Positions 28,479 through 30,375 of a DNA stretch of 64,000 nt are shown one piece after another. The stretch is taken from the NCBI RefSeq assembly GCF_016903815.1, contig NZ_CP069973.1; one strand, written 5' to 3'. This stretch comes from Escherichia coli. Lineage in GTDB: Bacteria; Pseudomonadota; Gammaproteobacteria; Enterobacterales; Enterobacteriaceae. The notes under the pieces are model-generated. The model ran no database searches. It was not told where the DNA came from and saw only the letters and a list, made by a program, of their open reading frames with translations. Numbering within the stretch: the stretch's first letter is position 1; each line of letters starts with the position of its first letter. Both the position numbers and the translations under genes were made by a program.

Positions 28479-28715
28479 ATGTTGCAACGTACGCTGGGCA
28501 GTGGCTGGGGAGTGTTGCTGCCAGGATTGCTGATTGCAGGGCTGATGTATGCGGATTTATCACCGGATCAGTGGCGGATTGTCATTCTGATGGGATTAGT
28601 ATTGACGTCGGTGATGCTGTATCACAAACAGTTACGGCATTACGTTTTGCTACCATCGTGCCTGGCGCTTATTGCTGCCATCATGCTGATGATAATGAAT
28701 TTGAATCAGGGATGA
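28479..28715 (+). CDS. yjjZ: YjjZ small membrane protein (78 aa)
   Basis: ORF track 115 aa; start set to the internal Met (MLQRTLGSGWGVLL) to give the recalled 78 aa. Confidence 0.65.
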   Translation: MLQRTLGSGWGVLLPGLLIAGLMYADLSPDQWRIVILMGLVLTSVMLYHKQLRHYVLLPSCLALIAAIMLMIMNLNQG

Positions 28716-28743: not shown

Positions 28744-28830
28744 TAAAGATAATTGGTGCGAGGGGGGGGACTTGAACCCCCACGTCCGTAAGGACACTAA
28801 CACCTGAAGCTAGCGCGTCTACCAATTCCG
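28744..28830 (-). tRNA. leuV: tRNA-Leu (anticodon CAG), 87 nt
   Basis: Reverse complement reads GCGAAGGTGGCGGAATTGGTAGACGCGCTAGCTTCAGGTGTTAGTGTCCTTACGGACGTGGGGGTTCAAGTCCCCCCCCTCGCACCA, anticodon loop CTTCAGGTG, long variable arm, encoded CCA. Confidence 0.92.
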
Positions 28831-28874
28831 CCACCTTCGCACAGTCATCTTACTTTTTTTGATATCGCCTCGTT

Positions 28875-28961
28875 TGGTGCGAGGGGGGGGACTTGAACCC
28901 CCACGTCCGTAAGAACACTAACACCTGAAGCTAGCGCGTCTACCAATTCCGCCACCTTCGC
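28875..28961 (-). tRNA. leuP: tRNA-Leu (anticodon CAG), 87 nt, with one base difference in the variable arm
   Basis: Same sequence as the flanking copies except GTGTTC instead of GTGTCC in the variable-arm stem. Confidence 0.9.
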
Positions 28962-28989
28962 CCAGTGCGAGCAATATCAACGTGGTTTT

Positions 28990-29076
28990 TGGTGCGAGGG
29001 GGGGGACTTGAACCCCCACGTCCGTAAGGACACTAACACCTGAAGCTAGCGCGTCTACCAATTCCGCCACCTTCGC
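28990..29076 (-). tRNA. leuQ: tRNA-Leu (anticodon CAG), 87 nt
   Basis: Identical to the first copy; the three genes are separated by about 28-44 bp spacers. Confidence 0.92.
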
Positions 29077-29204
29077 ATACCATCAATTCTTAAAAAGAAT
29101 TGCTACCACGGAGGCGCATTCTAGTGGTTTTCAGCTTTTCGTCAATAGTTAATTATCGCCGGAGGTGTAATTGCTGGAAAAATGTCCATCAGGAAACTAG
29201 CGTG

Positions 29205-29335
<131 letters not shown>

Positions 29336-29343
29336 CGAGATAA

Positions 29344-30375
29344 TTAACCTTTCTTCGCCTGGCGGGTCATAATGGCGCGATACACCTTGAAACGCCCGGT
29401 TTGCGCAATCACTTCATGGAAGCCAAATGTCTCATCCAGCACGTCCGGGTAAGGCAGGAAGGCGTTCGCTACAATTCGCAGCTCGCCGCCGCTATTAAGA
29501 TGACGCACCGCGCCGCGAATCAGCGTTTGCGCCGCATCCAGGCTGGTTTGCATCCCATCGTGGAACGGCGGGTTGGAGATGATCATATCAAAACGACCTT
29601 TCACCTCGGAAAAGACGTTGCTGGCAAAGACTTCACCTTCAACACAGTTGGCCGCAAGTGTTGCGCGGCTGGCTTCTACCGCTGGCGCAGAGACATCGCA
29701 CAAGGTGAGACGAATTTTCGGCGAATGGCGCGCAAAGGCAACTGAAAGCACCCCCGCGCCACAGCCGACATCCAGCACTTTACCTTTCGTGTGCGGGGTT
29801 AACGTCGAGAGTAACAACTGGCTACCGACATCCAGACCGTCGCGGCTAAACACGCCAGGCAGCGTTTTGACCGTCAGGCCATCGACGCTGTATTCGCCCC
29901 AGAATTTATCCGCATCAAATACTGGCTGTTTTTCCAGACGACCAAAATAGAGGCCACAGCGACGAGCGCTGTCGACTTTATTCAACGGCGCATAATCTGC
30001 CAGCATCTGCTCGGCGCTGCGCACGCCGCTGCGGTTCTCGCCAACGACAAAAATATCCGTCCCCACCGGCAGCAGAGAAAGTAAATTCATCAACTGGAAC
30101 TGGGCTTCCGGTTTGTTCTTCGGCCAGTAGTAAATCAGCGTATCGCAATCTGCGACGTCATCCGCCGTGGCGACCAGACTGAAACGGGCGTTATCCCCCA
30201 TCTGGCGGCTTAATACCTGCCAGTGGTGGAATTGCTGGGTATGAGCACGGCTGGCCGCGGTATCTAAACGCGCGGGCAGGTCATCCTGTAAGTCTCCGGC
30301 AAACAGAATACGGCTTTGTTCGAAATCATCACTGTGACGCAGCAAGACTTCACTTGCCGGGGTAAATGCAGACAT
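29344..30375 (-). CDS. rsmC: 16S rRNA (guanine1207-N2)-methyltransferase RsmC (343 aa)
   Basis: ORF track 343 aa with SAM-binding motif [11 protein letters not shown] and NPPFH catalytic motif. Confidence 0.88.

Follow-up and report, generated by a model that had tools for sequence, protein, structure and literature searches.

The single-base variant of the middle tRNA-Leu(CAG) gene in the Escherichia coli leuQ-leuP-leuV array: the known leuP gene and a probably ancient, near-neutral U48

Three tandem tRNA-Leu(CAG) genes lie in the 64,000-nucleotide stretch of Escherichia coli DNA analyzed here (hereafter, the window; contig NZ_CP069973.1 of assembly GCF_016903815.1), and the middle gene departs from its two neighbors at one base. 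The locus raises the question of whether this base is a genuine feature of the gene, what it changes in the tRNA, and how a lone variant has come to stand between two copies of the other form.

The array and the variable-arm base of leuP

We located the tRNA genes of the window with ARAGORN and Rfam. ARAGORN revealed exactly three in the 64 kb, all tRNA-Leu(cag) on the minus strand, each with the anticodon cag at position 35 in a 7-nt loop; in the Rfam search, each copy matched RF00005 over the full model (1-71) at 48.5 bits, where the gathering score is 29. In the direction of transcription, the order is leuQ (28990..29076, minus strand), the promoter-proximal gene, leuP (28875..28961, minus strand), the middle gene, and leuV (28754..28840, minus strand), the distal gene. 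ARAGORN thereby returned the middle gene at precisely the interval that the initial annotation had assigned to it. The 28-nt leuQ-leuP spacer (28962..28989, minus strand) provided a unique anchor for the population counts given below, and the leuP-leuV spacer (28841..28874, minus strand) is 34 nt long. The array sits between rsmC (29344..30375, minus strand; identified by open reading frame, annotation and tblastn), which lies upstream on the same strand and served as the synteny anchor across genera, and the convergent downstream gene yjjZ (DUF1435; 28479..28715, plus strand; annotation and tblastn), which served as the second anchor.

Upstream of leuQ, a consensus scan placed the best site of the region at 29118..29145 (minus strand), where -35 TTGACG and -10 TAGAAT are separated by a 16-nt spacer (10 of 12 consensus matches, a pattern match only) and the -10 element is followed by the G+C-rich stretch GCGCCTCC. 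Judged by its position upstream of leuQ, the site at 29145-29118 is the putative promoter of the operon. Between this site and the end of rsmC, at about 29190-29340, we also observed REP-like imperfect palindromes (gccagatgcgacgctggcgcgtcttatctggcctac and taggtcggataaggcgttcacgccgcatccgaca); the leuQ-to-rsmC distance ranges from 190 to 291 nt depending on the strain, which suggests that the number of REP units is variable.

Alignment of the three 87-nt genes in the tRNA sense showed that column 48 reads C, T, C, with all other columns invariant, so that the one-base difference previously reported between otherwise identical tandem genes is real. Nucleotide 48 is given here in linear numbering and is not Sprinzl position 48; the site is "V13" in the Sprinzl coordinates of a recent preprint (10.64898/2025.12.27.696718). 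On the top strand, the variant is an A at 28914, versus G at 28793 and 29029, and the strings ccgtaagaacactaa and ccgtaaggacactaa quoted in the initial annotation are both present in the window sequence.

The tRNA layout, taken from the Rfam alignment and direct reading of the sequence, comprises an acceptor stem (nucleotides 1-7 with 77-83, including an A5-C79 mismatch), a D stem (10-12 with 24-26), an anticodon stem (28-32 with 40-44), a variable-arm hairpin (G46-C57, U47-A56, C48-G55 and C49-G54, with loop UUAC), a T stem (60-64 with 72-76), and a 3' end formed by the discriminator A84 followed by CCA. The leuP base, read as U48 from the minus strand, converts C48-G55 to a U48-G55 wobble within the four base pairs of the variable-arm stem (46-49 with 54-57), as had been proposed from the initial reading of the sequence. 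This helix was 100% paired across a set of 21 distinct tRNA-Leu(CAG) sequences from Enterobacterales: pair 48:55 was CG in 13 and UG in 8, pair 49:54 was CG in 16 and UG in 5, and pair 47:56 showed one compensatory change from UA to CG. These counts support pairing of the variable-arm stem.

With ViennaRNA parameters, the cloverleaf was calculated at -30.0 kcal/mol for the C form and -27.1 kcal/mol for the U form, a cost of about 2.9 kcal/mol for U, and the variable-arm hairpin alone at -5.2 (C) versus -2.3 kcal/mol (U). The unconstrained minimum-free-energy fold recovered the cloverleaf for neither form and z-scores were weak, which is usual for an unmodified tRNA sequence. The E. coli leucine identity elements are the discriminator A73, the A15-U48 Levitt pair and G18G19 (PMC9976931). 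Their counterparts, discriminator A84, A15, G18G19 and U59 (Sprinzl 48), are present and identical in the three copies, and the variant nucleotide 48 (linear) is none of the listed positions. According to the same review, variable-arm sequence and folding have no effect on leucylation in E. coli, and armless variants are still active (PMC9976931).

The array is the E. coli leuQ-leuP-leuV operon, with leuP as its middle gene. The annotation of NC_000913.3 has the same arrangement (leuV b4368, leuP b4369, leuQ b4370), and leuQ, leuP and leuV of the window are identical copy for copy to K-12 b4370, b4369 and b4368. K-12 MG1655 leuP shares 87/87 nt with the window gene, U48 included, and the middle position, the spacers and the neighbors rsmC and yjjZ are the same; although the 2-kb stretch around the MG1655 array is no exact substring of the window, the gene and the array themselves show no difference.

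The variant is therefore not new, but already known as part of the catalogued, published and ordinary leuP gene of E. coli. GtRNAdb holds a separate entry for leuP (tRNA-Leu-CAG-2-1); leuQ, leuV and the distant leuT (tRNA-Leu1, GtRNAdb Leu-CAG-1) share the anticodon, the length and all other nucleotides with leuP, but carry C48 and a fully Watson-Crick variable-arm stem. The difference in one variable-region nucleotide has been described (PMC12472396), a tRNA-seq preprint gives (leuP) and (leuQ leuT leuV) as distinct sequences (10.1101/2020.02.21.958157), and nanopore analysis of native tRNA from E. coli MRE600 found two ionic-current populations matching both forms (10.64898/2025.12.27.696718). 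As a practical consequence, tRNA-seq references without Leu-CAG-2 will mis-assign reads.

The operon itself has been studied by Mohanty and Kushner (PMC2190699), who found that QPV is made as one precursor from which RNase P, not RNase E, cuts out the individual tRNAs, with Rho-dependent termination after leuV in K-12. In the window, leuQ is followed by AAAACCACG (CCA-AAAACC) and leuP by CCA-AACGAG, in agreement with the text of that paper on the leuQ (AAAACC) and leuP (AACGAG) trailing sequences; its Table 1 swaps the two relative to its own text, and the window has the version of the text. The legend of its Figure 5 calls the four Leu1 genes identical, overlooking the leuP base.

Population state and instability of the array in E. 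coli

We determined the base at each gene position in 5426 complete E. coli genomes (RefSeq), carrying out the comparison with other leuQPV operons that the initial annotation had suggested. The counts used 96-nt queries anchored in the unique flank of each copy, for which one mismatch brings identity below 99%, and an E-value cut-off of 1e-35 or lower, which shuts out partial matches to other tRNA-Leu copies; a 100-nt BLAST query was set aside, as one mismatch still gives 99.0% and identity bands do not separate the alleles. The 461-nt array region found a match in 5425 genomes, many of them 100% identical, K-12 derivatives among them.

The leuP copy, anchored in the leuP-leuQ spacer, was kept in 4976 of the 5426 genomes. 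Using the U-form query, which spans the gene interior, the variant and the unique spacer, we observed a perfect U at this position in 4530 genomes; a perfect C was found in 130, and 316 had a further mismatch. Two sampled genomes of these 316, ST130 and CH458, have U48 together with one spacer SNP, a common one; since both carry U48, about 97% of intact arrays probably do. At the leuQ position (promoter flank), U was present in 60/5422 genomes, and at the leuV position (downstream flank) in 58/4542. The distant leuT carried U in 5/5375 genomes and C48 in the other 5370. The initial annotation had allowed that the base might occur in all strains including K-12 and be annotated already: K-12 has it, and it is annotated as leuP, but some strains carry C or do not have the copy.

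Individual arrays show the base both spread and erased. Strain S30 has U,U,C, Nissle 1917 and ATCC 25922 have C,U,U, and C,C,C is the state of seven O55:H7 assemblies and of ETEC H10407. Arrays of the C,C,C type are genuine traits of lineages, and given those of O55:H7 and H10407, the U48 variant is dispensable. Loss (130 genomes) and spread (118, or 60 + 58) of U48 are similar in number, and thus give no sign of directional bias.

Copy number varies as well. About 450 of the 5426 genomes are without the leuP-leuQ junction, and the number of BLAST places per genome ranged from 1 to 11. In O157:H7, the array has contracted to one or two copies with hybrid flanks: strain 3384 has a single gene, flanked at its 5' end as leuQ is and at its 3' end as leuV is, and TR01 has two genes. 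E. coli 2015C-4136CT1 also has two. In lineages such as O157:H7, U48 is thus lost together with array contraction, and the lineages O55:H7, O157:H7 and H10407 have no U48 gene at all. Taken together, the array behaves as expected of tandem repeats, with low-frequency two-way gene conversion, mostly neighbor to neighbor, plus unequal crossing-over.

Two further observations concern gene copies outside the array. In O157-type strains with a contracted leuQPV (NZ_CP018247.1, strain 7784, and O157:H7 PV15-279), leuT is tandemly duplicated within argX-hisR-leuT-proM, and across the sample 5670 leuT-flank places were found in 5375 genomes; the leuT duplication may compensate for lost tRNA-Leu(CAG) gene copies. 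A few E. coli plasmids also match tRNA-Leu(CAG) genes of this family at 8-9 places (e.g., the 294-kb NZ_CP170379.1).

On the top strand, each gene contains eight consecutive G (28762-28769, 28883-28890 and 28998-29005), corresponding to 8 C at tRNA nucleotides 72-79. This run was seen at lengths of 7, 9, 10 and 12 in several assemblies (Klebsiella michiganensis DSM 25444, Citrobacter koseri NCTC10786, C. amalonaticus AUH, E. coli 2015C-4136CT1 and MG1655 CP025268.1), in which errors and real mutations are indistinguishable without reads. In lines defective in mismatch repair, this same C run was reported as the main hotspot for indels in tRNA genes (PMC8510543). We considered whether leuPQV substitutions in mutation-accumulation lines might represent conversions at the variant site, and rejected this, as they are mostly transitions beside the 8-G:C run and unrelated (PMC8510543 supplement).

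In one MG1655 re-assembly, NZ_CP025268.1, leuP has C and the run in leuV is 9 C long; neither is found in the reference MG1655, NCM3722, BW25113, TG1 or J53. A laboratory gene conversion is a possible source of this C, but the 9-C run in leuV of the same assembly makes an assembly or polishing error more likely, and we did not accept it as a real conversion. Three identical copies, or odd C-run lengths, in an assembly should accordingly be read with caution, as they may be polishing artifacts.

Comparison across Enterobacterales

We searched one genome per species with the U-form pattern; at least 120 stretches were recovered, all necessarily from U48-containing genomes, as only such genomes could be returned. 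Analysis with ARAGORN and of the flanks revealed the exact C-U-C order at a minimum of 27 loci in at least 11 genera, always adjoining rsmC. Among the matches listed, these genera were Escherichia, Salmonella (arizonae), Citrobacter, Klebsiella, Raoultella, Kosakonia, Enterobacter, Phytobacter, Pseudocitrobacter, Pseudenterobacter and Intestinirhabdus. RsmC beside the C-U-C arrays was 82-92% identical in amino acids to the window RsmC (tblastn), and the loci usually adjoin holD-rimI and yjjZ-fhuF as well. The C-U-C arrays of other Enterobacteriaceae, including the Klebsiella oxytoca group, thus have the same genes, order, single difference and syntenic locus as the window. U48 is also the state of leuT, in the argX-hisR-leuT-proM cluster, across many of the same genera (more than 30 loci), in contrast to the C48 of E. 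coli leuT.

Other arrangements were also recovered. Kosakonia arachidis has U,U,C, Pluralibacter and Trabulsiella have C,C,U, and the Lelliottia/Huaxiibacter group has U49, U49, U48; Klebsiella pneumoniae-like genomes combine an all-C array with a U48 leuT. In Morganellaceae (Xenorhabdus, Photorhabdus, Proteus and Morganella), a two-gene array with one U48 and one C48 gene lies beside rsmC, whose product is 54-58% identical to the window RsmC, and all copies carry A5G and C79T.

The acceptor stem varies by family. The A5-C79 mismatch is present in all Enterobacteriaceae copies (in leuP, window positions 28957 and 28883), the corresponding pair is G5-U79 in all Morganellaceae copies, and C5 occurs in two copies of the Lelliottia group. 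The change at position 5/79 is common to all copies of a genome, the distant leuT included, a sign of concerted evolution.

In a second sample, metagenome contigs were searched with a pattern accepting either base at the site; many short-read assemblies were collapsed or broken at the array. The completely assembled non-E. coli arrays were mostly C-U-C (about a dozen). Six others had a different, 86-nt tRNA-Leu(CAG) form in second position, sometimes in third position too, and one array had four genes, all C. The 86-nt form has the variable arm GUCC-UUA-GGAU, with a 3-nt loop, and the T loop TTCGAGT; RsmC on the contigs carrying it (Enterobacteriaceae) was 86-92% identical to that of E. coli, and one such contig had five genes with the two forms alternating. 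As in leuQPV, what sets the second gene of these rsmC-adjoining arrays apart from the first is confined to the variable arm or its vicinity. The change itself is other than that of leuP, involving the stem GUCC/GGAU, the 3-nt loop and an A-to-G in the T loop.

Ancient inheritance weighed against other explanations

We consider it very probable that leuP U48 is an ancient, near-neutral variant that is vertically inherited and occasionally erased or spread by conversion. This reading is favored by the existence of U48-free lineages, by two-way conversion at similar frequency, and by the variable-arm changes tolerated in relatives. The three genes would be transcribed as one precursor from the putative promoter upstream of leuQ and then separated by RNase P, with leuP yielding a normal CUG-reading leucine tRNA: a minor U48 form of tRNA-Leu(CAG), next to the presumed major C48 form encoded by leuQ, leuV and leuT. 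The ancestor shared by many Enterobacteriaceae genera would already have had U48 at this locus, and the base would have persisted through vertical inheritance, while gene conversion within the array would occasionally erase it or copy it to a neighbor and unequal crossing-over would alter the copy number. Because E. coli LeuRS does not use the variable arm, U48 is likely to be effectively neutral in function. The "probably neutral" of the initial annotation fits this evidence, as the variable arm is no LeuRS identity element and natural lineages without U48 exist.

Variable-arm differences between tRNA gene copies are also familiar from E. coli tRNA-Tyr1 (tyrT, tyrV) and tRNA-Tyr2 (tyrU), class II copies whose only differences are a couple of nucleotides in the variable arm, with no known functional consequence. 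Unlike leuP, that case concerns another amino acid, and the differing copies stand at separate loci.

Common descent of all U48 genes is the less secure part of this history. U48 may instead have arisen several times by recurrent C-to-T change at a tolerant site, particularly in Morganellaceae versus Enterobacteriaceae, which we regard as an unlikely but serious alternative. The A5G and C79T in all Morganellaceae copies imply that these copies were homogenized once the families had split, and any older difference at nucleotide 48 should have disappeared in the process; in the Lelliottia/Huaxiibacter group, the neighboring C49 has undergone a change of the same kind. Against this, the identical position of the variant in the syntenic Enterobacteriaceae arrays is most simply explained by shared ancestry, and leuT carries U48 in both families. 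Whether there was a single origin or several concerns history only and leaves the identity of leuP unaffected.

A more consequential explanation, which we consider improbable, is that (weak) selection maintains both tRNA-Leu(CAG) forms, with a distinct role for the U48 form; proposed roles are stability or turnover, modification, fragment production, and precursor folding with RNase P processing. At the orthologous locus beside rsmC, at least 11 genera have conserved the C-U-C order despite demonstrable conversion, and in Morganellaceae all copies carry A5G/C79T while one U48 and one C48 are retained; a kept position of the U copy and a U/C split that outlasts homogenized acceptor stems could mean selection for two forms. 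Furthermore, leuT also has U48 in many genera, even where a K. pneumoniae-like array is all C, and in other Enterobacteriaceae it is once more the second array gene that varies (in the 86-nt form). However, the cross-species genome scan returned only U48-containing genomes, and successful E. coli lineages (O55:H7, O157:H7, H10407) live without any U48 gene. Loss and spread within E. coli are about equal, as unbiased conversion predicts, and the deviation of about 5% within E. coli is, by a crude estimate, roughly compatible with the deviations between genera. The dispensability of the variable arm for leucylation (PMC9976931) also speaks against selection, and the variable-arm changes C49U, A52U and U51A of other lineages suggest relaxed constraint there.

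Sequencing or assembly error, or a mutation private to the strain, has practically no chance of explaining the difference and was rejected: errors do occur in this repeat (CP025268.1 and wrong long-read C-run lengths), but nothing points to one in the window, and the same base stands in the MG1655 reference, in at least 4530 independent complete genomes and in other genera, and is reported in native tRNA (10.64898/2025.12.27.696718).

The finding would gain in importance only if selection lay behind the deep conservation. Enterobacterales would then have kept two variable-arm forms throughout the history of the family, despite two-way conversion, and the variable arm of a very abundant tRNA would have a role beyond aminoacylation. 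For the ancient, near-neutral variant that we favor, U48 is the majority state at leuP in E. coli, sometimes erased or spread by conversion, and its position in the C-U-C array is common to many enterobacterial genera.
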